Positions 751-16,483 of a DNA stretch of 16,483 bases are shown piece after piece. Under the pieces are notes generated by a model. It was not told the origin of the DNA. It saw only the letters and a list, made by a program, of their open reading frames with translations, and ran no database searches. Every line of letters starts with the position of its first letter. The first letter of the stretch is position 1. The DNA lies in the IMG/VR virus record IMGVR_UViG_3300012983_000313, positions 1 to 16,483 of that record. The stretch is one strand, 5' to 3'. The stretch comes from a virus (Duplodnaviria; Heunggongvirae; Uroviricota; Caudoviricetes). The translations under genes and the position numbers were made by a program.

Positions 751-1043
751 CAGATTACGAAGACGATCAACTGAAAGAAGAAAACGCCCGTAAGCAACGT
801 GACATGGCGCAGCGTGAAATTGATGACATTCGCTTTGTCATGAGCAGTGAACAGGGGCGTCGCGTTGTCTGGTCTGTGCTGGAGAAAGGCCGGGTGTTTT
901 CCGCTATCTCTCCGATGGACGCTATGGCAATGGCATTTAATGAGGGGCAACGCAATCTGGCGCTGGAACTGTTTCAGCGCGTTATGGCGCATTGCCCTGA
1001 ACAGTATTTGAAGATGGCCAAAGAGGCCAGTGAACAGGAGTGA
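747..1043 (+). CDS. Small conserved head-module protein of unknown function (98 aa), between portal and scaffold
   Basis: ATG 747 overlaps the upstream stop (ATGA), indicating translational coupling. Charged, helical-looking protein. I have a vague recollection of a similarly placed small protein family in Bordetella phage BPP-1-like head modules, but cannot verify it. Confidence 0.5.
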   Translation: MTDYEDDQLKEENARKQRDMAQREIDDIRFVMSSEQGRRVVWSVLEKGRVFSAISPMDAMAMAFNEGQRNLALELFQRVMAHCPEQYLKMAKEASEQE

Positions 1044-1045
1044 TC

Positions 1046-1708: not shown

Positions 1709-1722
1709 GAGAGGAAATGACA

Positions 1723-2709
1723 ATGGCTGTTAAAGGCTTAACTGCGCTAACGCTGGCTGACTGGGGTAAGCGCGTCGATCCAAACGGGAAAGTCGATAAG
1801 ATTATCGAGCTTCTCGGTCAAACTAACCCGATCCTTCAGGATATGCCTTTTGTCGAAGGGAACCTTCCTACCGGACACCGAACCACCATTCGTTCTGGTT
1901 TACCTTCAGCTACCTGGCGTTTGCTGAACTATGGCGTACAGCCAAGTAAATCAACCACAGTGCAGGTAACCGATTCCGTTGGCATGCTGGAAACCTATGC
2001 TGAAGTCGATAAGTCACTGGCTGATCTTAACGGCAATACTGCCGAATTCCGCCTGTCTGAAGACCGCGCATTTATTGAAGCGATGAATCAGCAGATGGCG
2101 CAGACGCTGTTTTATGGTGATTCCAGCGTTAACCCTCAGCAGTTTATGGGACTGTCCTCCCGCTATTCCAGCCTGTCTGCGGGTAATGCTCAGAACATCA
2201 TTGATGCTGGTGGCACGGGTACAGATAACACCTCAATCTGGTTAGTGGTGTGGGGAGAAAACACCGTGCATGGCATCTTCCCGAAAGGGCAGAAGGCTGG
2301 CATCCAGATGGAAGATAAAGGCCAGGTGACACTGGAAGATGCTAATGGCGGCAAGTACGAAGGCTATCGCACCCATTACAAATGGGATAACGGACTTGCT
2401 CTGCGTGACTGGCGTTATGTTGTTCGCATTGCAAACATCGATGTCAGCAATCTTTCAGAACCTTCCTCTGCCGCAAATATTGCGAAGTTGATGGTTAAAG
2501 CACTGCATCGCATTCCAAACCGTGGCATGGGTCGCCCGGTGTTCTACATGAACCGCACTGTAGGCCAGGCTCTTGATCTGCAATCTCTGGAGAAAACATC
2601 TCTGGCGATCAGCGTAAAAGAGACAGAAGGCGAGTGGTGGACTTCATTCCGTGGTGTACCAATCCGTGAAACTGATGCGCTTCTGGAAACAGAAGCCCGC
2701 GTGGTGTAA
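1723..2709 (+). CDS. Major capsid protein (putative, about 328 aa)
   Basis: Largest head-region ORF directly after the scaffold. GAGGA (1710-1714) lies 8 nt before ATG 1723; ATG 1717 is also in frame but too close to the SD. Followed by a stem-loop at 2726-2745, as is common after highly expressed capsid genes. The sequence is not T7 gp10-like by eye; the size and context resemble the roughly 330-aa capsid proteins of BPP-1-type podoviruses (from memory). Confidence 0.65.
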   Translation: MAVKGLTALTLADWGKRVDPNGKVDKIIELLGQTNPILQDMPFVEGNLPTGHRTTIRSGLPSATWRLLNYGVQPSKSTTVQVTDSVGMLETYAEVDKSLADLNGNTAEFRLSEDRAFIEAMNQQMAQTLFYGDSSVNPQQFMGLSSRYSSLSAGNAQNIIDAGGTGTDNTSIWLVVWGENTVHGIFPKGQKAGIQMEDKGQVTLEDANGGKYEGYRTHYKWDNGLALRDWRYVVRIANIDVSNLSEPSSAANIAKLMVKALHRIPNRGMGRPVFYMNRTVGQALDLQSLEKTSLAISVKETEGEWWTSFRGVPIRETDALLETEARVV

Positions 2710-2725
2710 CGCCTGTTATTAACCT

Positions 2726-2745
2726 GTGGGTCGTAACAGACCCAC
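2726..2745 (+). promoter_or_regulatory. Stem-loop immediately downstream of the major capsid gene (possible attenuator or RNA-stability element)
   Basis: GTGGGTC-GTAACA-GACCCAC perfect 7-bp stem, 17 nt after the capsid stop. No U-tract follows, so it is unlikely to be a full terminator. Confidence 0.35.
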
Positions 2746-2760
2746 TAATGGAGAAAGAAG

Positions 2761-3198
2761 ATGATCACCGACAAACTGTTGATGTTCTCCGAAGCTCAGG
2801 CGGTTACGAATACCGCGGCTTCTACTGACGTAATCGATCTCGGTCCAATTGACGGAAAACATCGTGATATCGGCGTGGGTTACCCGCTTGAGTTTTGGGC
2901 GCTGGTTAACACAGCCGCCGCGGCAAGCGGTGATGCAACTGTAAACATCCAGTTGCAGACGAGTGAGAATAACAGCTCATGGACCACTATTTATGATAGT
3001 GGCGCACTGGCAAAGACCGCCCTGACAGCAGGTAAACGAGTTGTTTCTGCAAAGGTGCCTGCCGGTGTTCAGCGATATCTGCGTGTTAACTACTCCGTCG
3101 CAACTGGCCCACTAACGGCTGGCGAATTCACTGCTGGTATCAGTCTTGATGTTGATGCCAATACGCCGTATCCGATCCGCTCAAAAGTAACTGGTTAA
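2761..3198 (+). CDS. Hypothetical virion protein; possible capsid decoration/cement protein
   Basis: ATG 2761 preceded by GGAGAAAGAAG. 145 aa, Ala/Thr/Gly/Val-rich and beta-rich in composition. Lies immediately after the major capsid gene. Function inferred from position only. Confidence 0.4.
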   Translation: MITDKLLMFSEAQAVTNTAASTDVIDLGPIDGKHRDIGVGYPLEFWALVNTAAAASGDATVNIQLQTSENNSSWTTIYDSGALAKTALTAGKRVVSAKVPAGVQRYLRVNYSVATGPLTAGEFTAGISLDVDANTPYPIRSKVTG

Positions 3199-3208
3199 GG
3201 TGATATCG

Positions 3209-3544
3209 ATGTCAGGTGAGAAACCAAGATACCGCGTTCTGCGCCTCTCTCATATCCATAACACTCTGTGGCCGGAGGGGGCAGAAATCGAATACGAAGG
3301 TGAGCCTGGTAGCGCACTGGAACCTGTTAACGATGCAGCCAGACAGGCAAAAGCAAAAGTTGCAGGAAAGGTGTCAATGGCAGCAACCAGCACCAAAATC
3401 ATCAACGATGTGTCAGATGATGGTGAACTGGATAAGCTCCGTGAAGAGTACGAATTGCTCTTTAACGAGAAGCCACACCATAACGCCAAAGCCGAAACGC
3501 TCCGCGAGAAGATCGCAGATAAGCGTAAAGAACTGGGCGTGTAA
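3209..3544 (+). CDS. Hypothetical head/neck protein (111 aa)
   Basis: AGGTGA (3197-3202) lies 6 nt before ATG 3209; the ORF track's GTG at 3200 sits inside the SD. C-terminal half is strongly charged and helical (DELDKLREEYELLFNEK...). Followed by a terminator-like hairpin with a UUCG loop. Confidence 0.45.
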   Translation: MSGEKPRYRVLRLSHIHNTLWPEGAEIEYEGEPGSALEPVNDAARQAKAKVAGKVSMAATSTKIINDVSDDGELDKLREEYELLFNEKPHHNAKAETLREKIADKRKELGV

Positions 3545-3560
3545 GCCTCGCGAATCAGAC

Positions 3561-3584
3561 AAGGGGCTTCGGCCCCTTTATTGC
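3561..3584 (+). terminator. Terminator-like hairpin with UUCG tetraloop inside the late operon (probably partial/leaky)
   Basis: AAGGGGC-UUCG-GCCCCUU 7-bp stem followed by TATTG, 17 nt after the stop of the 111-aa gene. The next gene's SD follows directly, so read-through is expected. Confidence 0.4.
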
Positions 3585-3594
3585 AGGAGTGTAT

Positions 3595-3918
3595 ATGGAA
3601 CTCGTAAACCTCAAAACAGGCACTGACATCTACCAGGATGAGAGCGGAGAAACCAGAACTCGCGATGAATACCCGTGGGGGCTGTGCATCACGCTGAATA
3701 ACGACACATTGAATAAGCTGAAGGCGCAACCTCAGGGCGTCGGAACAGAAGTGATGATAACTGCAAAGGCTGTTATTCGAGGCCTGTCTGCCAGAGAAAC
3801 TGACGATGGTGTTAATCGCAGCGCCGATCTGCAGATCACTGATATGGCTATCGCTCCTGTTTCCGGTGATGTAGGAAAATCAGCGGCTGAAACTCTGTAC
3901 GGCAATGGGGGGGAGTAA
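3595..3918 (+). CDS. Hypothetical virion protein (107 aa) sharing a C-terminal SAAE[VT]LYG motif with the scaffold protein
   Basis: GGAG (3585-3588) lies 6 nt before ATG 3595. Stop TAA 3916-3918 overlaps the next ATG (TAATG). C-terminus ...GKSAAETLYGNGGE resembles the scaffold C-terminus ...QRSAAEVLYGK. Confidence 0.45.
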   Translation: MELVNLKTGTDIYQDESGETRTRDEYPWGLCITLNNDTLNKLKAQPQGVGTEVMITAKAVIRGLSARETDDGVNRSADLQITDMAIAPVSGDVGKSAAETLYGNGGE

Positions 3919-4523
3919 TGGCCTCTGTAGTAGAGATCTGCAATTGCGCGCTGTCCAATATTGGCAATAGCCGCAGCATTAACAGCCTGACGGAAGCCAG
4001 CAAGGAAGCGGGGGAATGTTCGCTGCACTTTGAGGCCTGCCGTGATGCTGTGCTTTCTGATTTTGACTGGAACTTTGCTACCAAACGCGTGGCGCTTGCA
4101 GATACGAGCAATCCACCGCCTGACTGGGAATATGCGTACCAGTACCCGTCCGATTGTCTGCGCATTACTGAAATTATGCTTCCTGGTGTACGCAATCCAG
4201 CAGCACCAATGCGCGTTCAGTACGAAGTTGGTGCAGACACCAACGGAACAGGAAAGTTGATCTACACAGACCAGCCTCAGGCATGGCTCAAGTATGTCTC
4301 TCGCGTTACAGATGTGAACATGTTTGATGCCATTTTTATGGAGGCGTTAGCCTGGCGTCTTGCGGCAGCTATTAACATGGCGCTGACTGGGAATGCAGAC
4401 CTCGGTACGTTTGCCCTCAATATGTACAATCGCGTGATTCTTAGTGCTGGCTCGCATAGCCAGAATGAATCACAGGAACCACAGCCACCGGTTGACGAGT
4501 TTACCATTGCGAGGTTGTCCTGA
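3918..4523 (+). CDS. Tail tubular protein A / adaptor (T7 gp11-like)
   Basis: 201 aa against 196 aa for T7 gp11. The N-terminal pattern (...ALSNIGNSRSINSLTE...FDWNF...) resembles T7 gp11 (...ILASIGEPPVSTLEG...RGWTFN...) as I recall it. Directly precedes a roughly 800-aa gp12-like gene with a TGATG overlap. Confidence 0.6.
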   Translation: MASVVEICNCALSNIGNSRSINSLTEASKEAGECSLHFEACRDAVLSDFDWNFATKRVALADTSNPPPDWEYAYQYPSDCLRITEIMLPGVRNPAAPMRVQYEVGADTNGTGKLIYTDQPQAWLKYVSRVTDVNMFDAIFMEALAWRLAAAINMALTGNADLGTFALNMYNRVILSAGSHSQNESQEPQPPVDEFTIARLS

Positions 4524-6988
4524 TGGCTATCAGTTGGATCCAGCCCAGCTTTGCCGGTGGTGAGATTGGACCGTCGTTGTACGGTCGTATCGACATGGCG
4601 AAGTACCAGGTGGCATTGCGCAAGTGCGATAACTTTATCGTGCGGCAGTATGGCGGCGTTGAGAATCGACCTGGTACGCGTTTTGTCGGTGCCGCCAAAT
4701 ACCCAAATCGGAAATGCCGCCTGATCCCGTTCCAGTTCTCGACGGTTCAGACTTATGCTCTGGAGTTCGGACACCAGTACATGCGCGTTATCAAAGATGG
4801 TGCGTTGGTGCTGAACAGCAGCAATGTTATTTATGAAATTGCCACGCCATATACTGAAGCCGATCTGTTCCGAATTAAATTCACGCAAAGCGCAGACGTG
4901 CTTACGCTGGTTCACCCGGCATACCCGCCGAAAGAGTTGCGCCGCTATGCGCATGACAACTGGCAACTGGTTGATGTGGTAACGAAGAACGGGCCATTTG
5001 AAGATATCAATATTGACGAGTCAGTGACGGTTTATGCCAGCGCCAGCACCGGGACAATTACGTTAACGGCAAGCGCCTCTATTTTTGGCGCGGAGCAGGT
5101 AGGCAAATTGTTCTATCTGGAACAGCCTGCAGTGGATTCTGTGCCGGTATGGGAAACCAGTAAGAGTACGTCGATTGGCGATATTCGCCGTGCAGACAGT
5201 AACTACTATCGCGCCGTTACAGCAGGCAAAACAGGTACTTTGCGCCCTTCGCATACAGAAGGCACATCATGGGATGGCTGGGGCGGATCCGGTGATGATG
5301 ATACTGGCATTGAGTGGGAATATCTGCACAGTGGTTTTGGCATTGCCCGTATCACTGCTGCAAATGGAACTACTGCAACTGCCGAGGTGATTTCCTATAT
5401 CCCTTCGCAGGTAGTTGGCGAGGATAATGCCAGCTATAAATGGGCTAAATATGCCTGGAACAGTGTTAATGGTTATCCTGGCACTGTTGTTTATTATCAA
5501 CAACGTCTTTACTTCGCCGCATCGACTGCGTTCCCTCAGACTATCTGGGCCAGCCGTACTGGGGATTATAAGGATTTTGGCAAAAGCAATCCTACGCAGG
5601 ATGATGACAGAATTATCTACACCTATGCCGGGCGTCAGGTTAATGAGATCCGTCACCTGATTGATGTTGGTTCGCTGGTGGCGCTGACTTCCGGAGGTGA
5701 GTACGTCATCACCGGCGACCAGAACAAAGTGTTAACCCCATCATCATTTGCATTCAGCTCTCAGGGATCAAATGGCTCAAGCAACGTCCCGCCAATTGCC
5801 GTGGCGAATATTGCTTTGTTCGTCCAGGAGAAAGGCAGCGTTGTCCGTGATCTGGCCTACTCATTCGATGTTGACGGCTATCAGGGGAACGACCTGACCA
5901 TCCTTGCCAATCATCTTTTTCAGAAGCACAGCATTGTTGACTGGTGCTTCTCGATTGTCCCTTACTCCAGCGCCTTCTGCATTCGTGATGACGGTAAATT
6001 ACTGGTGATGACCTATTTGCGTGATCAGCAGGTTTTTGCATGGGCACCACAATCCAGTACCGGAAAATATGAAAGCACATGCAGTATCAGCGAAGGCAAT
6101 GAAGATGCGGTGTATTTCGTCGTTAACCGAACCGTTAACGGGCAAACAGTGAGATACATCGAGCGACTGTCCAGCCGTTTATTTACCAGCGATGAAGATG
6201 CTTTCTTTGTTGATTCTGGCCTTAGCTATGATGGAAGAAATACGTCTGACAGAACGATGATCATCACTGGTGGTTCTGGCGAATGGGATTACCGCGCGGA
6301 ATATACAATCAGTGTTTCTGGTGGTGCGTACTTCACCAGTAGTGATGTCGGTGCTCAACTACAGTTCCCTTATACCGGAACTGATCCTGGCGATGAAGTG
6401 TCAAAAGAATTACGTTGCGACATCATTTCTGTAACCAGCAATACCGCTGTAGTGGTTCGTGCTAACAGGAACGTCCCGCCATCCCTCAGGAATGTGGCCA
6501 CCACGAACTGGCAGATGGCGCGCCGGACATTTGGCGGTTTGTCTCATCTTGAAGGTCAGACCGTAAACATCCTCTCTGATGCGAACGTGGAACCACAGAA
6601 AGTGGTTTCCGGAGGTGCCGTCACGCTGGAATCACCTGGGGCTGTAGTGCACATCGGCCTGCCAATAACTGCTGAATTCGAAACACTGGATATCAACATT
6701 AACGGACAGGAAACGCTGCTGGACAAAAAACAGGTGATCCCGTCCGTTACTCTGGTTGTGAATGCCAGTCGCGGCATCTTGGCTACTACGCCCGGCGGTA
6801 AATGGTACGAATATCCACAGCGTGAATTCGAGTTCTACGATGATCCTGTTGATGACGCTACCGGAAAAGTAGAAGTGAAACTGGACAGTAACTGGGGCAA
6901 AAACGGACGTGTAAGAATCCGTCAGCTTGACCCGTTGCCGCTGTCTGTTCTTGCCGTTATTCCTCGCCTTACTGTTGGGGGATTCTGA
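4523..6988 (+). CDS. Tail tubular protein B / nozzle (T7 gp12-like)
   Basis: 821 aa against 794 aa for T7 gp12. Sits in the gp11-gp12 synteny position. N-terminal GG-x-I...RPGT pattern is loosely like gp12. Start ATG 4523 overlaps the upstream stop; GAGG lies 8 nt upstream. Confidence 0.6.
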   Translation: MAISWIQPSFAGGEIGPSLYGRIDMAKYQVALRKCDNFIVRQYGGVENRPGTRFVGAAKYPNRKCRLIPFQFSTVQTYALEFGHQYMRVIKDGALVLNSSNVIYEIATPYTEADLFRIKFTQSADVLTLVHPAYPPKELRRYAHDNWQLVDVVTKNGPFEDINIDESVTVYASASTGTITLTASASIFGAEQVGKLFYLEQPAVDSVPVWETSKSTSIGDIRRADSNYYRAVTAGKTGTLRPSHTEGTSWDGWGGSGDDDTGIEWEYLHSGFGIARITAANGTTATAEVISYIPSQVVGEDNASYKWAKYAWNSVNGYPGTVVYYQQRLYFAASTAFPQTIWASRTGDYKDFGKSNPTQDDDRIIYTYAGRQVNEIRHLIDVGSLVALTSGGEYVITGDQNKVLTPSSFAFSSQGSNGSSNVPPIAVANIALFVQEKGSVVRDLAYSFDVDGYQGNDLTILANHLFQKHSIVDWCFSIVPYSSAFCIRDDGKLLVMTYLRDQQVFAWAPQSSTGKYESTCSISEGNEDAVYFVVNRTVNGQTVRYIERLSSRLFTSDEDAFFVDSGLSYDGRNTSDRTMIITGGSGEWDYRAEYTISVSGGAYFTSSDVGAQLQFPYTGTDPGDEVSKELRCDIISVTSNTAVVVRANRNVPPSLRNVATTNWQMARRTFGGLSHLEGQTVNILSDANVEPQKVVSGGAVTLESPGAVVHIGLPITAEFETLDININGQETLLDKKQVIPSVTLVVNASRGILATTPGGKWYEYPQREFEFYDDPVDDATGKVEVKLDSNWGKNGRVRIRQLDPLPLSVLAVIPRLTVGGF

Positions 6989-7458
6989 TGATCGATGTTC
7001 GAATTATTCCCGCTACCGAAGAGCATCTTCAGATGATTTTGCCGGATGTTCGTCAGGCTGATATTGACGAACTGTATGCGGTATCGCTGATGACTACCGA
7101 AGATGCGCTGCTTGTTGGTCTTCGCACTGCGACTATGGCCTGGTCAGGGTTCGCGAACGGAGAACTGGTAACCATGTTTGGTGTATCTCCGGCGTCAATG
7201 ATCGGTGGCAATGGTACGCCATGGCTGGTAGGAACCAGCCGTATTGAAAAATATCAGAAGACATTTCTTCGCCACTGCCGCCCTGTATTGCAGCAGATGC
7301 TGGCAGTTTATCCGCGTCTGGAAAACTACGTCGACGAGCGAAACCATGTTGCCAAAGCATGGCTCCACTGGCTTGGATTCAGGCTTGAAGAAGCCGCGCC
7401 TTATGGTGCTCTTGGTCTTAATTTCCACAGATTTCACATGGAGAGAAAAAATGTGTAA
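6988..7458 (+). CDS. Hypothetical protein in the gp13 (internal virion protein A) position
   Basis: 156 aa. ATG 6988 overlaps the gp12-like stop (TGATG); its stop TAA 7456-7458 overlaps the next ATG. Function inferred from synteny only. Confidence 0.5.
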   Translation: MIDVRIIPATEEHLQMILPDVRQADIDELYAVSLMTTEDALLVGLRTATMAWSGFANGELVTMFGVSPASMIGGNGTPWLVGTSRIEKYQKTFLRHCRPVLQQMLAVYPRLENYVDERNHVAKAWLHWLGFRLEEAAPYGALGLNFHRFHMERKNV

Positions 7459-7990
7459 CCCAGCCATAGCTTTGGTTGCCGTCACAGTGGCATCCACAGC
7501 CGCGTCAATGTACAGCCAGAGCAAGCAGGCAAAATACCAGTCAGCCATAGCTGATCGGAATGCTGAAATTGCTGAAGCTCAGGCACAGGATTCAATCAAT
7601 CGTGGGAATATTGAAGCGGATCAGCGTCGTCGTGAAATGCGTCAACGCTCAGGCACTATGGCGGCCACTATGGGGGCTACCGGTGCGGAATTAAGTAGCG
7701 GAACAGCTCTTGACGTTTTTGCGGATAATGCTCAGTTCGGCACTCTTGATGCGTTAACGACAGTGAATAATGCTCAGCGTGAGGCATATGGGTATCAGGT
7801 ACAGGGAATGAATGCTCAGGCACAGGGGGCTGCTGCTCAGTCGGCTGCTAAATCATCGATGACCAGCACTTTGTTAACGGCACCACTAAAAGCATACGGT
7901 GCATACCAGATGGGCGGCGGAACGTGGAGCCCGTTCTCTCAGAAGGCTGCGCCGATTTCTGCTGCTGTTGGCACTCCAACCGGTCGATAA
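7451..7990 (+). CDS. Internal virion protein B (T7 gp14-like), 179 aa
   Basis: GGAGAG (7439-7444) lies 6 nt before ATG 7451. Begins MC + hydrophobic helix + Q/A-rich region and ends ...KAAPISAAVGTPTGR, closely mirroring T7 gp14 (MCWAAAIPIA......KAPIVAAKGTKTGR) as recalled. The ORF track's 248-aa version starting at 7244 is an artefact of upstream in-frame readthrough into the previous gene. Confidence 0.6.
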   Translation: MCNPAIALVAVTVASTAASMYSQSKQAKYQSAIADRNAEIAEAQAQDSINRGNIEADQRRREMRQRSGTMAATMGATGAELSSGTALDVFADNAQFGTLDALTTVNNAQREAYGYQVQGMNAQAQGAAAQSAAKSSMTSTLLTAPLKAYGAYQMGGGTWSPFSQKAAPISAAVGTPTGR

Positions 7991-8002
7991 GGGGATAATA
8001 AG

Positions 8003-10516
8003 ATGCCAGTTGTACCAACAACATCGGGCCGTCAGGTTCAGAGCAGAGGGATTTCGACGCAGGGATTCTCATCGTTTCAGACACCAAATGTCGGTAATGT
8101 ACTTGGCGATGTTGCAGAGCAATATGCAGGTATTATTGCGCAGGCAAAACAGCGTGCGAATGTTGCTATGGCTCAGGATGCTTCTCTTAGCTTAAGCCAG
8201 ATAAGCAGCGATCTGCTGAATAACCCTGAAACAGGTTTGCTTAACCTGAAAGGGAAAAATGCTATTGGAAAAGGTCAGGAGTATACGCAGCAGTTTGATG
8301 CTCAGATCGAACAACTGGCTATGTCGCTGCCGGATGAACAGGCTCGTAATGCTTTCATGCAGCAGGCGCAGCAGCAGCGTATTCAGTTCACTATGCAGGC
8401 CGGGCGGCACGAGATAGGGCAAATAAATGCCTACGAAGAAGGCCAGTTTCAGGCGACGCTGCTGAACAATGGTAAAAATGCCGCAGCATTGTATGGCGAC
8501 AACGCCGCATACGTATTGGCTAATAAGCAAACTTTCCAGCAAATTGAGGATTATGGCATTGCGCATGGCTGGAGCGACGAGCAAATACAGGCCAAGAAAA
8601 TCGAGTTTAAAGAGAAGGTTGCTGATGCCGCATTGTCCCAGTGGTCGGCAAACAATGCGACCGCATTCATCCAAAGTAATGGCGAGTTAAGTGATATTGC
8701 TGCTGGAGCTCGCCGTGCTGTAGCAGATAGTGACTCTTCCGAGCGTGCCCGTGGCATACGCAACAATAACCCAGGAAATCTCGAATACAGCAAAACTAAT
8801 CCGTGGGTAGGCCAGACCGGTGATGATGGTCGATTTGCTAAATTCGAAACACCTGAACACGGGATTCGTGCATTAGGGCGGAACCTGATGTCGTATCAGA
8901 GGCAGGGTATTGATACCGTCAGCGAGATAATTAATCGCTGGGCACCGCCTACTGATAAAAATGACACTATGTCGTATATCAAAGCAGTGTGCGAACAACT
9001 TGGCGTTTCTGCTGATGAGCCTCTCGATGCATCTAATCCTGATACCCTGAAGGCGCTTTGTGCAGCCATTATCCATCATGAGAACGGTAGCCAGCCATAC
9101 AGTGATCAGCAGTTAACTGCTGGTGTCAGTGCAGCACTTGGTTTATCAACAATTCCAACCAACACCAAACGCTATACCGGTAATGCAGCATTCGATGCGG
9201 CATCTCCTGAGGCGCAGGCAAGTTTTATGCGACAGGCGGATCAACTGCGTCGGCAGCAGCAGGCTGAATATAAAACGATGATTGACAGCCAGGTTCGCGA
9301 TGCGACAGCTGCGTATATGCGTGGCGTTGAATTTCCTAACCCACCTGGTGAGGCTGATTTTATTGCAGCTTATGGAGTCAGAGAAGGAAACCTGCGATAT
9401 ACCGAGTTCAGAAATACGCAAATCGCCGGACAGTATATAGGCTCTTTCCGCAACATGCCGACAAGCAGCATTACAGCATATGTTGAGCAATTACGCCCGG
9501 ATACTGGTGAGACAGGGGAGGGTTATGCGGCACGAGCCGCTCTTTATGACAACGTTGTGTCGGCTGCAAGTCAGGTGATAAAGCAGCGACAGGCTGATCC
9601 TGTACAGTTCTCTCTTGCCGCCGGACAGGCAAAGCCTATCGACATGAGCAATAAGGATAACTTTGGACAGAGCGTTGCCTTGCGAGCTGCTCAGGTCAGT
9701 GACCTTGCTAAGTCATATGGCACTCCACTGACGTTCTTTTCCAAAGACGAGGCCAATCAGATCGGTGTTTTCTTTCGTGATGCGCCCGTTTCCCAACAGG
9801 CAGCATATCTCGATACCATCAGGCAGAGCACTGGTGGTGGGCAGGTGTATATGTCAGCACTACAGCAGATCAGTGCCAACGCTCCATCTGCTGCCGTTGC
9901 CGGGATACTGATGGATAAGCCAGGTGGTATTTTGGCAGAAAAAAACTGGTTTAATCCGGATGTTTCCGTGTCTCCTGAAACCGCTGCGCAGACAATTCTT
10001 GCTGGCGCGGCGGCTCGTAAAGGTACTGATGACGCGAAAGGTATTCCGATGCCTAAAGATGCTGATCTTCGCTTTGAGTTTTCTGACATGGTGAAGGATG
10101 CATTTGCTGGTGACGCTCAGGGAGCATCAATGGCATACGAGATCGCAAAGGATTATTACGCTGGTGTGATGGCGAAAAAAGGCGTGGTATCAGGCGAAAT
10201 TGACAATGATGTCTGGAAACAGGCTGTTAACGTAGCTACAGGTGGCGTGCATGACTATAACGGAATGGGGAATGTCCTTTTGCCGTGGGGAATGTCTGCA
10301 GAGCAATTCGATAAGCAGGTTAATCAGGCTTGGAATGAACAAGTTGTCGGCTCCGGGATAAAAACACCGCCTGGTCAGTATGGTTTGCAAAGTTACGGCG
10401 ATAGTCAGTACCTGGTGAAACTTGGTACTGGTTATCTACTGAAAGATGATGGTTCTCCCGTTGTTCTTAATCTGACACAGAAGCGTCAGAGATTCTCCGG
10501 AGATATTCCGCAATGA
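8003..10516 (+). CDS. Large internal virion/core protein (gp15-position, 837 aa) with an internal conserved-looking NNPGN block
   Basis: ATG 8003 lies 12 nt after the upstream stop with a GGGG-rich SD. Gln/Ala-rich helical protein typical of podovirus core proteins. Contains a block RGIRNNNPGNLEYSKTNPWVGQ...HHENGSQPY (about nt 8750-9100). Confidence 0.55.
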   Translation: MPVVPTTSGRQVQSRGISTQGFSSFQTPNVGNVLGDVAEQYAGIIAQAKQRANVAMAQDASLSLSQISSDLLNNPETGLLNLKGKNAIGKGQEYTQQFDAQIEQLAMSLPDEQARNAFMQQAQQQRIQFTMQAGRHEIGQINAYEEGQFQATLLNNGKNAAALYGDNAAYVLANKQTFQQIEDYGIAHGWSDEQIQAKKIEFKEKVADAALSQWSANNATAFIQSNGELSDIAAGARRAVADSDSSERARGIRNNNPGNLEYSKTNPWVGQTGDDGRFAKFETPEHGIRALGRNLMSYQRQGIDTVSEIINRWAPPTDKNDTMSYIKAVCEQLGVSADEPLDASNPDTLKALCAAIIHHENGSQPYSDQQLTAGVSAALGLSTIPTNTKRYTGNAAFDAASPEAQASFMRQADQLRRQQQAEYKTMIDSQVRDATAAYMRGVEFPNPPGEADFIAAYGVREGNLRYTEFRNTQIAGQYIGSFRNMPTSSITAYVEQLRPDTGETGEGYAARAALYDNVVSAASQVIKQRQADPVQFSLAAGQAKPIDMSNKDNFGQSVALRAAQVSDLAKSYGTPLTFFSKDEANQIGVFFRDAPVSQQAAYLDTIRQSTGGGQVYMSALQQISANAPSAAVAGILMDKPGGILAEKNWFNPDVSVSPETAAQTILAGAAARKGTDDAKGIPMPKDADLRFEFSDMVKDAFAGDAQGASMAYEIAKDYYAGVMAKKGVVSGEIDNDVWKQAVNVATGGVHDYNGMGNVLLPWGMSAEQFDKQVNQAWNEQVVGSGIKTPPGQYGLQSYGDSQYLVKLGTGYLLKDDGSPVVLNLTQKRQRFSGDIPQ

Positions 10517-12315
10517 GTTACTTTGGCCTTAATCCAGTAAACCAGAATCAGCAGCTTGACGAAGCAGCATCAAATCCAGCTGGCTTTAACAGCGATGTTG
10601 GTTTTTTCGACAATGCTGTAGGAGCGGCATTGTCTGGTTTGTACTCCGGGCTGGTGGCAAAGCCAGATCAGTTGCTATGGGCAGGGATGGATAAAATCGT
10701 ATCCCCGATTGCTCAGTTTATTAACGAAAACACCTCGCTCAATGATACTTCAGTTTCATACATTGCCGAGCAGAGAAAACTAGCAGAGCAGCAGGTTAAG
10801 CGGCTGACGCCTGATGCCGCGACAACCGGAACCGCCGGGCAGGTTCTTTATGGGTTGTTCGATATGGGCGGGCAGGCTGTTGTTGGTACAACGCTCGGTG
10901 GTCCTGTCGGAGGTGCAGCGGCGGTAACTTCGCTACAGGGTTTTTCTGAGTTTGAACGGTTGACAGCACAGGGTGTTGATTTCAGGACGGCGCAGGAAGC
11001 GGGATTAGTGCATGGTATTACTGCTGGTGCCGGAACACTGATCCCTATGAGCCTCGGGTTACGTGCTGGTGGTGCGCTGGCGGAAGGTGTGGCGGCTCAG
11101 CTTGCGCGGACGGGTGAGAGTTCAGTGCGACGCGCCGCAGCAACAGCAGTACGTGCAACGCCAGATATTGCCTATGCCGCAGGTACAAATATTGCGTTCG
11201 GTATGGCACAGCGTGGGCTTACTGCAAAAACGCTTCGTGATGGTGGCTATAGCGAAATGGCTAACCAGTATGATGTGTTGGATCGACAGGCAATTGCTAT
11301 TGATGCTGTTCTTGGGGTGGCGTTTGGTGGTGTCGGCAGATTTATTAACTCTCGCGGCGAGTCTACAAGCGCACCAAATTTTTCACCAGTTGATATTGAT
11401 GCTGCACTGGCGGCGAATGCCGCTCATCATGCTGAAATTGATATTGCTCCCGGCGTTCCGATCAACGTGCTTTCGCGTAATTCGCACATTCAGGCTCTGC
11501 GAAAAGCCATGTCTGATGTTAGCCAGGGGAGACCTGTAGACGTTGCCAGCATTGTTGAGTCTGCATCTTTCAGTGAAATTCCTGGGCGCAAGAGTCTGCT
11601 ATCTCAGGCAGTTAATGAGGCTCTGTCATCTGTAGATGATGGAGTAACGGCGCGCGCTATAGAAAATCGGTTGCTTGAAGAACAGGCCGCGCAGCTTTTG
11701 TCGCGTGGCGATAGACAGGTTTACCAGTCTGAAATCGCTAATAGCCAACGAATTATTGAAAATCTCACTGAACAGCGCGCACAAATTCTTGCAGAAGAGC
11801 CAACCGGTAGCGGTAAGGCTTTATCTCGTGCTCGATCAGATAAACAGGCCAGACTTCGCGATATTGACCAACGAATCCGGCAGGCACAAGAACGCCTGGA
11901 ATTTTCTCGTAACGCGTTGGCGCCGCACGAGCCTGGAGGTCAGTTTTTTGAAGCTCGAGCAGAACTGGCACGACGACAGCAGGCAGAAAGTGAACTTAAT
12001 GCTCAGGCTGTTTCATTCTATAAAACAGCAGAGGTCAGGACGCCAGACGAAGTAGCTCCTTTTGAGCCCGGTAAGATATTGCAACAGACAGAACAAAAAA
12101 TGATGGCAGATCCGGCAGGAGATATTGATCTGCGTATAGCTGAAGACTCGCTGCTTGAATCTCCGGACATGATAATCACCGTGCTGGATGATGATGGTAA
12201 TCCACAATCGCGCAGTGCGCGTGAAGTACTGGATGAAGCGAACAGGGAAAGTGAGCAGGCAATACAGGATTCCAGCCTGTTTGATGTCGCTGTGGCGTGT
12301 TTCTTGAGAGGTTAA
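10513..12315 (+). CDS. Internal virion/ejection protein (600 aa) with Gly/Ala-rich hydrophobic segments
   Basis: ATG 10513 overlaps the upstream stop (ATGA). N-terminal half carries several Gly/Ala-rich hydrophobic stretches (GTTLGGPVGGAAAVTSL, GITAGAGTLIPMSLGL, AIDAVLGVAFGGVG) compatible with membrane insertion. C-terminal half is charged and helical. Confidence 0.5.
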   Translation: MSYFGLNPVNQNQQLDEAASNPAGFNSDVGFFDNAVGAALSGLYSGLVAKPDQLLWAGMDKIVSPIAQFINENTSLNDTSVSYIAEQRKLAEQQVKRLTPDAATTGTAGQVLYGLFDMGGQAVVGTTLGGPVGGAAAVTSLQGFSEFERLTAQGVDFRTAQEAGLVHGITAGAGTLIPMSLGLRAGGALAEGVAAQLARTGESSVRRAAATAVRATPDIAYAAGTNIAFGMAQRGLTAKTLRDGGYSEMANQYDVLDRQAIAIDAVLGVAFGGVGRFINSRGESTSAPNFSPVDIDAALAANAAHHAEIDIAPGVPINVLSRNSHIQALRKAMSDVSQGRPVDVASIVESASFSEIPGRKSLLSQAVNEALSSVDDGVTARAIENRLLEEQAAQLLSRGDRQVYQSEIANSQRIIENLTEQRAQILAEEPTGSGKALSRARSDKQARLRDIDQRIRQAQERLEFSRNALAPHEPGGQFFEARAELARRQQAESELNAQAVSFYKTAEVRTPDEVAPFEPGKILQQTEQKMMADPAGDIDLRIAEDSLLESPDMIITVLDDDGNPQSRSAREVLDEANRESEQAIQDSSLFDVAVACFLRG

Positions 12316-12320
12316 ATTAA

Positions 12321-14795
12321 ATGAGACAGGAATGTATACAAGCGGTCCAGCAGGCGGCGCAGCGCACGTTAACGGCGCGAGAAATACAGAACATTGAAGA
12401 CCGCATTTATCGAAATATGCGCTCCATTGCTCGTGATGACCCGATGTCGTGGAGACAACTTTCCGAATCAGAGCGGCTATATCGTGCAGCACAATTGGCA
12501 TCTGAAGAATTACAGCGAGAAGCGGCATTAAAGAAACGTCGTGTGGCCATCACTATAGCCGCACGTCAGAGATTGGATAAATTTATCAATAGCTATCAAG
12601 GGGCTGATGGGAAACTTGGCGCTCTTAACCGTACTATTGCTTTTAATGCAGACGGTAAATCGAATTTCCTCTCTGTTGAGTCCAGAACAAAAGCCACTCG
12701 TGATTATGCATTGAGTCAATTGCAGGAGGCATTCGAAGCAGTTGATCCTCGCTTTTTTGGTCTGTTTGAAGATGAAGCGGGCGTACGTGACCTGGTATAT
12801 GAAATGCGAGGGCAAAATACTGGCAATGCTAAAGCAAGAAAAGGTGCTAAGGCGTGGAGAGAAGTGACAGATCTACTGCGCCGCCGGTTTAATGATGCTG
12901 GTGGGGACATTGGCTATCTCGAAAACTGGGGGATCCCTCAACATCATTCTATGGAAAAGGTTGGGGCGGTATCAAAGGATAAGTGGGTTAGCGATGTTAT
13001 AGGTAAGCTGGATCGCAAATATTATATCCGAGCCGATGGACAACTGATGAATGATGCCGAGTTGTCTGCATTTCTTGGAGAGGCTTATAACACGATCGCT
13101 ACTGGTGGGCTGAATAAGCTTACTGATACCGGAATGCGAATTTCCGGCGCACGTGCTAACCGTGGTAATGCATCACGACAGATACATTTCAAAGATGCAG
13201 ATTCCTATCTGCAATATCAGCAACTTTATGGCGATCGCTCTCTATGGGAAATCATGGTCGGTCACCTGGAAGGTATCAGTAAAGATATTGCACTGGTGGA
13301 AACATATGGCACAAACCCCGATCATGTTTTCCGCTCTCTTCTTGATCAGGTGAAGGCAGAAACGGCAACAGCTAACCCGAGTAAAACCGGTAAAGTCGAG
13401 CGGCTGGCGAACAACACAGAGAATCTGTACAACTTTATTTCCGGAAAGACACAGCCTGTAGCGAATCCGCACATCGCGCGATGGTCTGACAATATCCGCA
13501 ACTGGCTGGTTGCCAGCAGACTCGGATCCGCGTTGCTATCATCGTTCTCTGATCTTGGAACCATGTATCTGTCTGCGAAGGTGACCAACCTTCCAATGAA
13601 CCAGTTATTCCGCAACCAGCTTGAAGCTATGGACCCAACGAACCGTACAGAACTTGCGCGGGCGCGCCGCGCTGGTCTGGCGATGGAATCTCTACTTGGC
13701 AGCGTTAACCGCTGGGCGATGGATAATATGGGGCCGTCAGTGTCTCGTTGGGCGGCAACGGCTGTAATGCGTGCCAGTGGGCTTACAGCATGGTCAGATG
13801 CGCACAAGCGCGCCTATGGCGTAACCATGATGGGAAGCATGGGGGAAGTAGTGTCACGGACACCAGACCTTCGTAGCCTCGATGACTCTGATTTTCGTAT
13901 CCTGAAAAGCAAAGGGATTACTGACACAGACTGGAGCGTATGGAAGCTGGCGCAACAGGAGGACTGGGGGAACGGTAATAATACGATGCTGACACCGGAA
14001 AGCATTATGCGTATCCCTGATTCAGCAGTTAAACATCTTGGTGAGCCTGAACGCGTGAAATTTGAGGCAATGCGTAAACTGCTCGGTGCCGTAACTGAAG
14101 AAGTTGATATGGCTGTTATTACACCGGGAGCACGTGAGCAACTGATAACCGGTTCTGGTATTCAGCGTGGAACATGGAAAGGTGAATTAACGAGAAGTGT
14201 TTTCCTGTTTAAATCGTTCCCTATCTCGGTGGTTATGCGCCACTGGTCACGCGCTATGGGGATGCCGTCTGCTGGTGGGCGTGCGGCATATATTGCGACG
14301 TTTATTGCCAGTACGACCATTCTTGGCGCTTTGTCGCAGCAACTTAACGACCTTGCGTCTGGTCGGAATCCTCGAGATATGACAGGAGAAGATGCCGCAA
14401 AATTCTGGCTTGGTGCTCTACTGAAAGGTGGTGGTCTTGGCCTTTACGGTGACTTTTTATTGTCAGATCACACTAGGTACGGAAGCGGCGCGCTGGCGTC
14501 GATGCTTGGCCCGGTAGCTGGTCTGGTTGATGACGTTGTGAAGATTGCTCAGGGCATACCGTTAAATGCTGTGGAGGGGAAGAATGAGCAGACTGGTGGT
14601 GATCTGGTGAAGCTGGGGAAAGGTTTGATGCCAGGTGCGAATCTCTGGTACTTAAAGGCGGCTCTCGATCATATGATCTTTAACCAGATGCAGGAGTATT
14701 TTTCACCAGGCTATTTGCGTAAAATGGAGCAACGTTCGAAGAAAGAGTTTAATCAGACATACTGGTGGCGACCTCAGGATGTCACTCCGCAATAA
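12321..14795 (+). CDS. Large internal virion protein (gp16-position, 824 aa)
   Basis: ATG 12321 with GAGAGG about 9 nt upstream. Last gene of the rightward operon, stop TAA 14793-14795. No repeats or beta-helix signature that would suggest a tail fibre or tailspike. Confidence 0.5.
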   Translation: MRQECIQAVQQAAQRTLTAREIQNIEDRIYRNMRSIARDDPMSWRQLSESERLYRAAQLASEELQREAALKKRRVAITIAARQRLDKFINSYQGADGKLGALNRTIAFNADGKSNFLSVESRTKATRDYALSQLQEAFEAVDPRFFGLFEDEAGVRDLVYEMRGQNTGNAKARKGAKAWREVTDLLRRRFNDAGGDIGYLENWGIPQHHSMEKVGAVSKDKWVSDVIGKLDRKYYIRADGQLMNDAELSAFLGEAYNTIATGGLNKLTDTGMRISGARANRGNASRQIHFKDADSYLQYQQLYGDRSLWEIMVGHLEGISKDIALVETYGTNPDHVFRSLLDQVKAETATANPSKTGKVERLANNTENLYNFISGKTQPVANPHIARWSDNIRNWLVASRLGSALLSSFSDLGTMYLSAKVTNLPMNQLFRNQLEAMDPTNRTELARARRAGLAMESLLGSVNRWAMDNMGPSVSRWAATAVMRASGLTAWSDAHKRAYGVTMMGSMGEVVSRTPDLRSLDDSDFRILKSKGITDTDWSVWKLAQQEDWGNGNNTMLTPESIMRIPDSAVKHLGEPERVKFEAMRKLLGAVTEEVDMAVITPGAREQLITGSGIQRGTWKGELTRSVFLFKSFPISVVMRHWSRAMGMPSAGGRAAYIATFIASTTILGALSQQLNDLASGRNPRDMTGEDAAKFWLGALLKGGGLGLYGDFLLSDHTRYGSGALASMLGPVAGLVDDVVKIAQGIPLNAVEGKNEQTGGDLVKLGKGLMPGANLWYLKAALDHMIFNQMQEYFSPGYLRKMEQRSKKEFNQTYWWRPQDVTPQ

Positions 14796-14990
14796 GGAAG
14801 TGTTTTGTTTTTAATTATTTTGAGTGTGATAATTTCTGGTGGGTTGTTATTTATTGACCGCTACAAATATTTTCTTAACCCTCAGACTCAAGCTATTTGC
14901 TGGTTCATCTTTGTTGTGCAGGGAATAGTTCTTGTTGCAAGCCTTATTGAGGGGAGGCCTCTGATTTTTACTGGGTAAATAGGTGACTAC

Positions 14991-15287
14991 ATGCAAGCGA
15001 TAGGATTCATTGTTTATATCGTCGTTGGTCTTTTTCAGTTGGCAGCAATTATGGCTGGGCTTGAATCATGGTGGGGATTGCACTGGATAATTGCAGCCCC
15101 CATTGCTTTCATCGTGAGCTATATTCCATTTGTTGGAGCGATTGTTGGTATGGTTGGCGCTGTGGATGTATGGCGGTGGGAGTGGTGGCAGGCTGGCCTT
15201 CTCTTCTTTGGTGGGATCATCTTTGTTATTGTCTGCGGTGGAATGTCATCATTTTTCGAATGGCTATCATTCAGAAAAGGGACGTGA
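14991..15287 (+). CDS. Small integral membrane protein (98 aa, about 3 TM helices, Trp-rich); moron-like, possible holin or exclusion-type protein
   Basis: AGGTGA (14981-14986) precedes ATG 14991. Three long hydrophobic segments (residues about 4-24, 31-58, 66-85) and a WRWEWWQ motif. Separated from the phage operon by a 195-bp AT-rich gap and followed by its own intrinsic terminator. Confidence 0.5.
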   Translation: MQAIGFIVYIVVGLFQLAAIMAGLESWWGLHWIIAAPIAFIVSYIPFVGAIVGMVGAVDVWRWEWWQAGLLFFGGIIFVIVCGGMSSFFEWLSFRKGT

Positions 15288-15295
15288 CATGTCAC

Positions 15296-15321
15296 AGGCC
15301 GCTTTCGCGGCCTTGTTTTTA
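15296..15321 (+). terminator. Rho-independent terminator of the membrane-protein transcript
   Basis: Stem AGGCCGC (15296-15302), loop TTTC, stem GCGGCCT (15307-15313), then TGTTTTTAA. Begins 9 nt after the stop codon. Confidence 0.6.
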
Positions 15322-15480
15322 ACGAATGCCACCGCCGCCCGGGCGGGAATCCGCAGAACGCCCACCGCAGCGGGAGCCGTCAGCGGCAGTATCGCTGTCG
15401 TGCTGACAACGACCGGCAAAGGCCTGAGTTGAAGCTACCAGAGACAACAAAACGAACAGTGCAGCAAATGCTTTTTTCAT
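15319..15480 (-). CDS. Putative small secreted peptide (53 aa) with an N-terminal signal-peptide-like segment
   Basis: Minus-strand ATG at 15480: MKKAFAALFVLLSLVASTQAFA then a 31-aa Cys-containing tail, stop TAA at 15321-15319. Weak SD (GGAAA). Lies between two convergent terminators. It could be non-coding; no homology recalled. Confidence 0.25.
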   Translation of the reverse strand: MKKAFAALFVLLSLVASTQAFAGRCQHDSDTAADGSRCGGRSADSRPGGGGIR

Positions 15481-15492
15481 TTGAAATTTCCA

Positions 15493-15520
15493 TCTATAAG
15501 CCACCTCAATGTGGCGTCAA
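15493..15520 (-). promoter_or_regulatory. Candidate sigma70-type promoter for the small minus-strand ORF/RNA
   Basis: On the minus strand: -35 TTGACG (+15520..15515), 16-nt spacer containing the inverted repeat CCACATTGAGGTGG, -10 TATAGA (+15498..15493). The predicted start would give an almost leaderless mRNA, which weakens either the promoter or the ORF call. Confidence 0.25.
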
Positions 15521-15551
15521 TGAGTGTAGCACTGACTTTTGTTTCGTCCAC

Positions 15552-15572
15552 AAAAAAGCCCGCAGTGCGGGC
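15552..15572 (-). terminator. Rho-independent terminator of the minus-strand two-gene cassette
   Basis: On the minus strand: GCCCGC-ACU-GCGGGC perfect 6-bp GC stem followed by UUUUUUGUGG (A-tract 15552-15557 on the + strand). Starts at the TAG stop of the 181-aa gene. Confidence 0.65.
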
Positions 15573-16117
15573 TATTCCTTCCATTTATCAGAAAAAAGAT
15601 CTTCTTCTAAAGGCATTGGTTTTGTTTTTGTTTTCTCAAAGAATTGATAACTGATAGTGATTGCTGCCTCTTTAAACTCTTCTTGCTCAGTTATGTTGTG
15701 AGCATCTGCGTCAACAAAAAACATAACCAGCGCATCACGATTGTGATTTACCGAATAAACTAAAAAGCAATCACTTGTTGGTATGCATTTTACTTGTACA
15801 GACGCTATATTTTTCCATGCATCCCAGGATGATTTTTTACCAGTGTGTTTTTTATCACTATCTTCTGGAATATAGTCTTGGTTATCGACATGAGTATGCC
15901 TGACATTTAGTTTAAGCATTTCTGTCGGACGAGCAAATGCGGCATCTTTACCAAGAGATGGATGGTATCCCGTTTTCCAATACTGGGTAAATGCATCAGA
16001 TACTTTCTTCAGCTCAAGATCAGATGCACAAAGGGCCGAGAAATTTTGCGTATGCAATACTCGACCCTTATATCTGACAATTTGATTTTTATCATTCTGC
16101 GACGCAGACAAACTCAT
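15572..16117 (-). CDS. Hypothetical cargo protein (181 aa); candidate toxin or defence effector
   Basis: Minus-strand ATG at 16117 preceded by AAGGA, 7 nt upstream; the ORF track's longer version from 16144 lacks an SD. AT-rich: about 36% GC in a hand-counted 120-nt sample, against about 50% in a sample of the phage genes. Terminated by a strong intrinsic terminator. C-terminal segment SDCFLVYSVNHNRDALVMFFVDADAH is loosely reminiscent of RelE/ParE-type toxin cores, unconfirmed. Confidence 0.55.
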   Translation of the reverse strand: MSLSASQNDKNQIVRYKGRVLHTQNFSALCASDLELKKVSDAFTQYWKTGYHPSLGKDAAFARPTEMLKLNVRHTHVDNQDYIPEDSDKKHTGKKSSWDAWKNIASVQVKCIPTSDCFLVYSVNHNRDALVMFFVDADAHNITEQEEFKEAAITISYQFFEKTKTKPMPLEEDLFSDKWKE

Positions 16118-16271
16118 AATTTTCCTTATTGTTACGAGAATCAAAGAAAGCGCTGGATACGCGACTTGCGTGATCTTTTGTCATAGTAACTTTTACGTAC
16201 TCTACGCTTCCATTGAAAGAACGTCTTGCGGCAGCTTGCGCTCTACGCATCTGCAATTTTTCGTTTCGCAT
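16092..16271 (-). CDS. Small basic protein (59 aa) overlapping the start of the 181-aa gene; candidate antitoxin or regulator
   Basis: Minus-strand ATG at 16271 preceded by GAGGT (5-6 nt spacer). Translates to MRNEKLQMRRAQAAARRSFNGSVEYVKVTMTKDHASRVSSAFFDSRNNKENYEFVCVAE. Its 3' end overlaps the downstream gene by 26 nt out of frame. Below the ORF-track length cutoff, so not listed there. Confidence 0.35.
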   Translation of the reverse strand: MRNEKLQMRRAQAAARRSFNGSVEYVKVTMTKDHASRVSSAFFDSRNNKENYEFVCVAE

Positions 16272-16387
16272 GACATTACCTCATATCTCATAAGTTCATT
16301 ACACGGATTAATAAAAATGAAACCAATCCGTTTACCCTTGAGGTAATAGTACGCTATTCACCTGCAATCTGTACAGAATTATTTAAA

Positions 16388-16403
16388 GGCACATCCCTGT
16401 GCC
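16388..16403 (-). terminator. Terminator-like hairpin after a minus-strand gene that ends at 16412
   Basis: GGCACA-TCCC-TGTGCC (6-bp stem). On the minus strand it is followed by UUUAAAUAAUU, a weak U-tract. Lies 8 nt downstream of the minus-strand stop. Confidence 0.3.
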
Positions 16404-16411
16404 GCCGCCCG

Positions 16412-16483
16412 TCAGAAGAACCCTGCTTTGTCGTTGATATACTCCGCGTGAGTCTGGATATCACGCAGGCATTTGCTCACACC
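16412..16483 (-). CDS. 3' end of an unidentified minus-strand gene (C-terminal 23 codons; gene continues beyond the window)
   Basis: Minus-strand frame open from the window edge: ...GVSKCLRDIQTHAEYINDKAGFF, stop TGA at 16414-16412. Near-average GC, followed by a hairpin. Too short to identify. Confidence 0.3.
   Translation of the reverse strand, partial: GVSKCLRDIQTHAEYINDKAGFF

Follow-up and report, generated by a model that had tools for sequence, protein, structure and literature searches.

A long-form YafO-family toxin gene and its 59-residue partner in an epsilon15/phiV10-type prophage

In the IMG/VR record IMGVR_UViG_3300012983_000313, a cassette of two overlapping genes runs against the direction of the phage operon, in a segment that is richer in AT than the phage genes. 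What these two genes encode, whether they work as a pair and which regulator commands them are the questions raised by this locus. The window analysed here is the whole stretch of 16,483 nucleotides (nt), positions 1 to 16,483 of the record; it is a prophage of the epsilon15/phiV10 type, i.e. a temperate podophage (Uetakevirus and relatives). A first reading of the letters alone (the sequence-only reading) had proposed an undescribed toxin-antitoxin or defence cassette, carried as prophage cargo, in which neither protein could be recognized. Our analysis indicates that the cassette is probably a type II toxin-antitoxin-like pair, composed of a YafO-type toxin of 181 amino acids (aa) and a dedicated partner of 59 aa.

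The two genes and their products

The layout of the cassette was read directly (Table 1). The two open reading frames (ORFs) are each preceded by a Shine-Dalgarno (SD) sequence, they overlap by 26 nt (16117-16092), and they are closed by an intrinsic terminator with a stem of 7 pairs, 6 of them G-C, and a loop of 3 nt. The G+C content is 0.37-0.39 over positions 15401-16400, compared to 0.45-0.59 across the phage genes of the plus strand (400-nt windows); the cassette lies about 12 points below the phage. On all these points, i.e. an AT-rich two-ORF unit on the opposite strand, the overlap, one SD sequence per ORF and the GC-stem/T6 terminator, the sequence-only reading was accurate, coordinates included. 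For the start of the large ORF, the mechanical list of ORFs gives a frame of 190 aa from TTG 16144; homologues and PGAP indicate the 181-aa start, which is used here. The cassette DNA is 98% identical to that of phage TL-2011b, whose gp45 and gp44 are the small and the large gene, and 100% identical to several E. coli chromosomes. Co-occurrence of the two ORFs, a check that the sequence-only reading had proposed, is complete: all 45 of the related viral contigs (the IMG/VR loci encoding a relative of the toxin) have the same ORFs in an unchanged register, which argues that the arrangement is not due to chance.

By its sequence, the 181-aa protein falls in the YafO toxin family as a long form, about 50 residues longer than YafO of E. 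coli K-12. It matches the Pfam model PF13957 (YafO_toxin) over residues 46-148 at a borderline level (25.9 bits for a gathering score of 25, E 1.1e-5), and 32 of the 52 family representatives match the same model. The family is small, with 25 clusters when grouped at 90% identity; at 50% identity, 1.84 billion proteins yield 61 representatives, and the low end of its match list merges into canonical YafO-like proteins of 130-150 aa. In an alignment of 52 sequences that includes K-12 YafO, three residues are invariant: G56 (in GKD), H76 (in RHxH) and H140 (in AH). Six others, F43, D58, P64, W98, S115 (in TSD) and Y121, are conserved in at least 90% of the sequences. When the close family was aligned with the canonical set including K-12 YafO, hhalign returned 99.6% (E 5e-24, 130 columns); the canonical set came from matches of the query profile, so that this agreement is not fully independent. 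The long subfamily is marked by the GKD, RHxH, TSD, Y and AH motifs and by a C-terminal tail, PMPLxEDLFxxKW.

The structural prediction points in the same direction. An AlphaFold2 model of the 181-aa protein, built from an alignment of 61 sequences without K-12 YafO, reaches a predicted local distance difference test score (pLDDT) of 92 and a predicted template modelling score of 0.86, and shows the predicted RelE/ParE (BECR) fold. Foldseek found no significant match of this model in the PDB or in BFVD. Sequence searches of the PDB with both proteins and the family profile gave nothing useful, one with K-12 YafO found no solved YafO structure, and neither cassette protein was matched by NCBIfam. 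YafO is one of 13 families of BECR-fold monodomain toxins, with the antitoxin gene placed before the toxin gene (PMC11980606). In E. coli prophages and for gp44 of TL-2011b, the RefSeq/PGAP name of the large ORF is already "type II toxin-antitoxin system YafO family toxin". K-12 YafO is experimentally toxic and degrades mRNA, its dependence on the ribosome being debated (PMC8546651); by analogy, RNase activity and toxicity are expected of the 181-aa protein.

The small ORF is, judging by its conservation, a real gene. In 45 of the 45 loci it is intact, with a length held at 55-63 aa, and ends 17-26 nt inside the toxin ORF. Its ratio of nonsynonymous to synonymous substitution rates (dN/dS), computed on the codons outside the overlap, lies between 0.16 and 0.50 for each of the 28 locus pairs (0.04-0.12 for the toxin). 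The SD and ATG are strong and invariant: the block TATGAGG...TGTCATGCG which carries them is unchanged in an alignment of 8 diverged loci. Small ORFs of 55-84 aa that can be aligned with the 59-aa protein also precede toxin homologues at 37-45% identity and beyond, in Arsenophonus, Yersinia, Pantoea-like and metagenomic sources. A near-invariant Ser lies within their helix motif, [ST]-K-E-x-A-x-x-[VI]-S-x-x-[FM], and their tail is usually of the form N/D-x-E-F. Protein relatives at 17-40% identity are found upstream of distant toxins where the DNA itself is unalignable. The N-x-E-F tail is kept in one locus (L053) where the overlap is of 4 nt, so that overlap with the toxin frame is not its explanation.

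These data make it scarcely credible that the small ORF is not a functional protein, i.e. that it is a leader or upstream ORF conserved at the RNA level and that the large protein acts alone. Such a reading would account for the silence of RefSeq, which omits the ORF in E. coli genomes (it has no annotation at all in E. coli UTME-9; in TL-2011b it is a "hypothetical protein"), for a nucleotide identity that is highest where the small ORF begins and in the overlap, and for a synonymous divergence which, over the same pairs of loci, is 0.3-1.2 in the small ORF vs 1.6 to saturation in the toxin gene, i.e. 2-5 times lower. The low divergence may be due to constraint on the RNA or to another history of recombination. 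RNAalifold proposes a hairpin over the start codons and the toxin SD and AUG; all its pairs are invariant (covariation term +0.42), hence it is no evidence either way for a conserved mRNA structure, and the RNA-level reading draws no covariation from it. As a separate observation, the invariant GCCGCAAGACGT (codons 14-17 of the small ORF) could pair with the small-ORF start region; covariation is absent. An antisense RNA was considered and set aside: the terminator-like site of the plus strand at 16158-16172 has a weak stem, and no plus strand promoter was found in the scan.

In the 59-aa protein, a basic helix at the N-terminus is followed by a second helix (KDHASRVSSAFF) and by the acidic-aromatic tail NYEFVCVAE. 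AlphaFold2 predicts helices at residues 4-21 and 32-45 followed by a disordered tail, with a pLDDT of 67; partial disorder is usual among antitoxins. The first 22 residues are strongly basic (isoelectric point, pI, of 12) and the remainder mildly acidic. No match was found in Pfam, NCBIfam, PADLOC or the PDB. The protein belongs to PHROG 6685 (phrog_6685), which has no assigned function, and a profile search with the small-ORF family reaches only 23 database clusters, all without Pfam domain or informative name. On the recognition of the two proteins, the sequence-only reading therefore holds for this one, which is in no described family, and fails for the 181-aa protein, which falls in PF13957. 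No helix-turn-helix (HTH), ribbon-helix-helix, AbrB or Phd domain was detected in the 59-aa protein by Pfam or NCBIfam, and AlphaFold2 gives only two helices at low confidence. The basic N-terminal helix leaves some nucleic-acid binding possible.

No significant relationship with known YafO partners was found. Comparison of the small-ORF family with YafN by hhalign gives probabilities of 0.1% and 1.8% (E 0.027), and its profile hidden Markov model (HMM) fails to retrieve YafN among 1788 ORFs; the best local alignment, which places the second helix and the tail on the C-terminal 25 residues of YafN, is not significant and is a resemblance only. The upstream partners of canonical-size YafO proteins have a similar C-terminal helix, but the HMM E-values are above 4. 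In phage EC.W1-9, residues 105-125 of a 139-aa partner resemble the small-ORF helix (HMM E 0.02).

Individual loci provide further observations on the pair. In L043 (4001-4560) a short deletion breaks the toxin, with a frameshift after residue 100 and a stop at 112 aa, and leaves the 59-aa ORF whole; decay would be expected to take this form if the large protein does harm and the small one protects. In L045 (1630-2056), where the toxin is 44% identical, two tandem small ORFs of 71 and 55 aa lie 5' of the toxin. Both end in a tail of the N-x-E-F type, so that the partner may be duplicated. Finally, the last ~50 residues of a metagenomic protein of 143 aa (P0099) match the C-terminal ~50 of the small ORF, with 77% identity over 88% of the small ORF, whose basic N-terminal helix is absent. 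They are joined to an unrelated N-terminal part of ~90 residues; the protein is a genuine fusion or else a product of faulty gene calling.

A palindrome at the cassette promoter and across the phage

The region upstream of the cassette has the same order in 8 diverged loci: a -35-like TTGxxx hexamer, 17 nt, a -10-like TAATAT or TACTAT, a palindrome with invariant arms, a hairpin of variable sequence, and the invariant ribosome-binding site and start block. At the position of the leader hairpin, relatives have a hairpin of another sequence (GGGTAAA...TTTACCC). The last base of the candidate -10 is the first base of the palindrome, and the same arrangement is seen at other promoters of TL-2011b. 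The promoter scan gave no score to the candidate -35 or to the cassette promoter. The window, together with L003 and L004, has lost 7 nt (ACTGTGG) in the interval 16352-16361 compared to TL-2011b and 26 other loci. With this deletion the spacer between TTGCAG and TACTAT is 10 nt instead of 17, and in the window TGTACA, at 18 nt, is then the one -35 candidate with a plausible spacing.

The palindrome occurs once in the window, and many times in complete phages of this type. TL-2011b has 10 exact copies, and phiV10, which is without the cassette, has 8, for an expectation of 0.05 from shuffles of phiV10. In TL-2011b, copies flank the gene of an HTH repressor, gp10 (p40 in phiV10), two at PL and one at PR, and a second copy in the PR region has one mismatch. 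Two of the others occupy a promoter that comes after the replication genes; further copies precede the terminase and head genes or lie at the promoters of Bro-N and of the cassette. The phiV10 copies are at equivalent places. Besides PL and PR, four or five promoters thus have the palindrome. Several sites overlap the last base of the -10, and pairs are 62 bp apart. A YafO-like cassette of EC.W1-9 has a palindrome with one mismatch after a TAGAAT -10.

A cassette-specific autoregulatory operator was rejected, since phiV10 still has 8 copies without the cassette. The palindrome looks like a genome-wide set of repressor operators of Uetakevirus-type phages, as far as its distribution can tell. 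The most economical reading is that it is the operator of the phage repressor, whose regulon would include the cassette promoter; binding by the repressor would follow from this, and we consider the chances for and against gating of the cassette by the repressor to be about even. The phiV10/ZX5 repressor has been shown experimentally to silence lytic genes (PMC9782041); a definition of its operator was not found in the literature consulted. As the palindrome is phage-wide, cassette transcription looks tied to the phage repressor circuit and not to classical autoregulation by an antitoxin.

Distribution and possible roles of the cassette

At least 80% of the cassette is present in 61 of 5426 complete E. 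coli genomes (~1%). In the phage collection it is found only in TL-2011b, with a 30%-identical homologue in EC.W1-9; phiV10, ZX5 and phiv142-3 are among the many relatives without it. It is located in an accessory region, with internal-virion/ejection genes on one side and the tailspike on the other, and with Bro-N, Arc-like and Ant genes nearby. The description of an undescribed toxin-antitoxin cassette is partly right: the cassette is bicistronic, toxin-antitoxin-like accessory cargo of a temperate podophage, and its toxin belongs to a known family that RefSeq already names. As a side observation on the same accessory locus, EC.W1-9 (L062, PP445227) has at 2059-2974 a different YafO-like gene of 168 aa, 30% identical, between Bro-N and the tailspike, with its 139-aa upstream partner overlapping by 11 nt.

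The type II reading is the one that we favour, on the following grounds. The bicistronic pair is conserved in all the viral loci, and distant toxin homologues are also preceded by a small ORF. The 59-aa partner departs from a classical type II antitoxin in having no recognizable DNA-binding domain, and the cassette promoter has no palindrome other than the phage-wide one. A single promoter under operator control would drive both genes, with the intrinsic terminator ending the transcript. The 26-nt overlap probably links translation of the toxin to that of the small ORF, inside which the toxin SD and AUG are located. The toxin would cut mRNA and thereby arrest translation, and the 59-aa protein would most likely neutralize it by binding to it directly, with the second helix and the acidic-aromatic tail as contacts. 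The phage repressor probably governs transcription, which would be low in the lysogen and higher on infection or induction; since the 59-aa protein has no recognizable DNA-binding domain, transcriptional control is apparently left to this repressor. The layout of the genes, the conservation and coding status of both ORFs, the family and fold of the toxin and the phage-wide spread of the palindrome are established by the data; the RNase activity and toxicity of the large protein, its neutralization by the small one, the identity of the protein that binds the operator and the timing of expression are deduced from them.

Several points weigh against this reading, in addition to the incomplete independence of the hhalign match. 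The PF13957 score exceeds its threshold by just 0.9 bit, and the single-sequence comparison of K-12 YafO with the 181-aa protein is not significant. The 59-aa protein is basic overall (pI 9.7), and typical antitoxins are acidic; moreover it has no significant similarity to YafN or to any antitoxin family. The 7-nt spacer deletion may weaken the cassette promoter in this prophage lineage, and the position of the palindrome on the -10 suggests repression, short of proof. Finally, silence in the lysogen is at odds with the addiction or abortive-infection roles usual for toxin-antitoxin operons.

A first alternative would make the cassette a moron expressed in the lysogen and serving anti-phage defence, abortive infection or prophage addiction: a constitutive pair, from which the toxin would be released on host shut-off by an incoming phage or on loss of the prophage. 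We regard it as unlikely. Its own promoter and terminator, its G+C content 12 points under the phage, and the distant family members found beside a ZorA-like/OmpA pair and beside BrnTA and a reverse transcriptase are in line with such a moron, and a lone operator without cooperative partner could leave some basal expression. However, PL/PR and other lytic promoters of the phage have the same operator, so that repression in the lysogen is to be expected; this complicates the picture of an AT-rich moron expressed from the prophage. The search for defence models that the sequence-only reading had suggested found none (neither protein matched PADLOC-DB 2.0 at E <= 1), and the low frequency among complete E. 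coli genomes does not favour this role either. As to the distant members themselves, they adjoin the ZorA-like/OmpA pair in L054 (1131-2581) and the BrnT/BrnA pair with the reverse-transcriptase gene in L060 (143-2792); these neighbourhoods are defence-island-like, and the Pfam matches concerned are faint or weak.

If the operator does impose expression on infection or induction, a second alternative presents itself: a YafO-fold RNase that would serve the lytic growth of the phage, by host shut-off or exclusion of co-infecting phages, with the small protein as timer or modulator. It is compatible with the antirepressor neighbours (Bro-N, Ant, Arc), which act at the lysis-lysogeny switch, and with the different YafO-like cassette of EC.W1-9, placed at the same locus and also behind an operator-like site. 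Two arguments make it quite improbable: the cassette is dispensable, since most relatives (phiV10, ZX5 and phiv142-3 among them) do without it, and an indiscriminate mRNA cutter would strike the phage transcripts too.

The type II reading can be carried further, in a form that we offer as a tentative and rather doubtful proposal. Self-regulation would have been abandoned: the antitoxin would be reduced to a toxin-binding peptide of 59 residues and the operon gated by the master repressor of the resident phage, so that the YafO-type RNase would be silent in the lysogen and deployed on induction or infection (e.g. for host shut-off or the sabotage of competing phages). The partners would then form a new antitoxin family.

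The toxin family, its public annotation and the usual gene order of the family are already known. What is new is an orphan family of very small, often unannotated partners for the long YafO subfamily, in which the antitoxin is without DNA-binding domain and the promoter is wired to a phage-wide operator. If the type II reading is true, a very small and uncharacterised antitoxin family is added to the YafO branch of the RelE/ParE superfamily, and the cassette is a concrete case of a toxin-antitoxin operon placed under a phage repressor operator instead of its own antitoxin, which matters for understanding at what stage, and to what end, temperate phages employ such toxins. Absence of the 59-aa gene from RefSeq E. 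coli prophages makes the toxin appear orphan and would mislead toxin-antitoxin censuses. In other respects the cassette is ordinary: a prophage-borne toxin of a known family.

Table 1. Features of the cassette in the window, and exact palindrome copies in two related phages
Feature	Position	Strand	Description or basis
Large ORF (181 aa), YafO-family toxin, long form	15572-16117 (ATG 16117, stop 15572)	minus	Pfam, motifs, profile match, predicted RelE/ParE (BECR) fold
Small ORF (59 aa), putative antitoxin/partner	16092-16271 (ATG 16271, stop 16092)	minus	conservation, dN/dS, phrog_6685
SD of large ORF, AAGGA	16127-16123	minus	inside small ORF; AAGG invariant in alignment
SD of small ORF, GAGGT	16282-16278	minus	6 nt 5' of ATG
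Intrinsic terminator	15573-15551	minus	stem AGCCCGC-ACT-GCGGGCT at 15573-15557, then T run (T6)
Candidate -35, TTGCAG	16367-16362	minus	consensus-based inference
Candidate -35, TGTACA	16375-16370	minus	consensus-based inference
Candidate -10, TACTAT	16346-16351	minus	position kept in 8 diverged loci
Operator-like palindrome, TTACCTCAAGGGTAA (TTACC-N5-GGTAA)	16332-16346		over -10/+1 region
5' leader hairpin, ACGGATT...AATCCGT	16303-16331	minus	read from sequence
Palindrome copies, TL-2011b (L055)	5172, 5234, 5946, 8227, 8289, 11590, 14819, 33333, 34385, 34478
Palindrome copies, phiV10 (L056)	87, 3252, 20497, 31953, 32015, 32727, 35070, 35132

The neighbourhood of the cassette contains other small genes. 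Directly downstream of the cassette terminator, 15319-15480 (minus strand) encodes a protein of 53 aa with a signal-peptide-like N-terminus (MKKAFAALFVLLSLVASTQAFA...), which matches phrog_14503, a "membrane associated protein" of the moron category. No operator palindrome is present 5' of this gene, and a terminator-like hairpin at 15296-15313 follows it, which could act for both strands. On the plus strand, after the gene of an 824-aa virion protein, 14805-15287 contains two small hydrophobic ORFs: one of 57 aa that starts at a TTG, and one of 98 aa (phrog_3075) whose LrgA-like match is weak. The equivalent position of phiV10 encodes a "putative integral membrane protein".

Comparison with known systems

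The closest known system is YafN-YafO of E. coli. Both have the same toxin family and motifs in common (GxD, HxH, S/N-D, Y, AH), the antitoxin-first order and a small partner immediately upstream. They differ in the toxin, of 181 aa here vs 132 aa in K-12, with an insertion between the second and third core strands and the conserved PMPLxEDLFxxKW tail at the C-terminus. They also differ in the partner, which has here 59 aa, no Phd/YefM-type domain and no significant YafN similarity, and in the junction of the two genes, a 26-nt overlap here and a 2-nt gap in K-12. The setting is different as well: YafN-YafO is part of the dinB operon, which the literature describes as SOS-regulated, whereas the cassette is phage-borne and lies behind a phage operator.

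Other toxins of the RelE/ParE superfamily are more remote. HigB2 (5mje), HigB1 (7nbu), RelE (1wmi), YoeB and YafQ have 4-17% identity with the cassette toxin, with Foldseek E-values that are not significant, and the cassette toxin is ~70 residues longer than these toxins. In most HigB systems the gene order is moreover reversed (PMC11980606).

As a genetic unit, the cassette resembles phage morons and the immI region of P22 (arc, ant): it is small and autonomous, it has a deviating G+C content and its own terminator, and it is inserted between virion genes and the tailspike, beside Arc-like, Ant and Bro-N genes. It parts from morons by its promoter, which has the general operator of the phage; lysogen expression, the hallmark of morons, is therefore doubtful.

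Genome-wide repressor sites are known in temperate phages, the "stoperators" of mycobacteriophage L5 being an example. Compared to them, the site is here a symmetric palindrome of 15 bp placed at promoters, often in pairs 62 bp apart, to which the repressor would bind. The likeness is that of one short repressor-type site present at many transcription units, the cassette promoter included.

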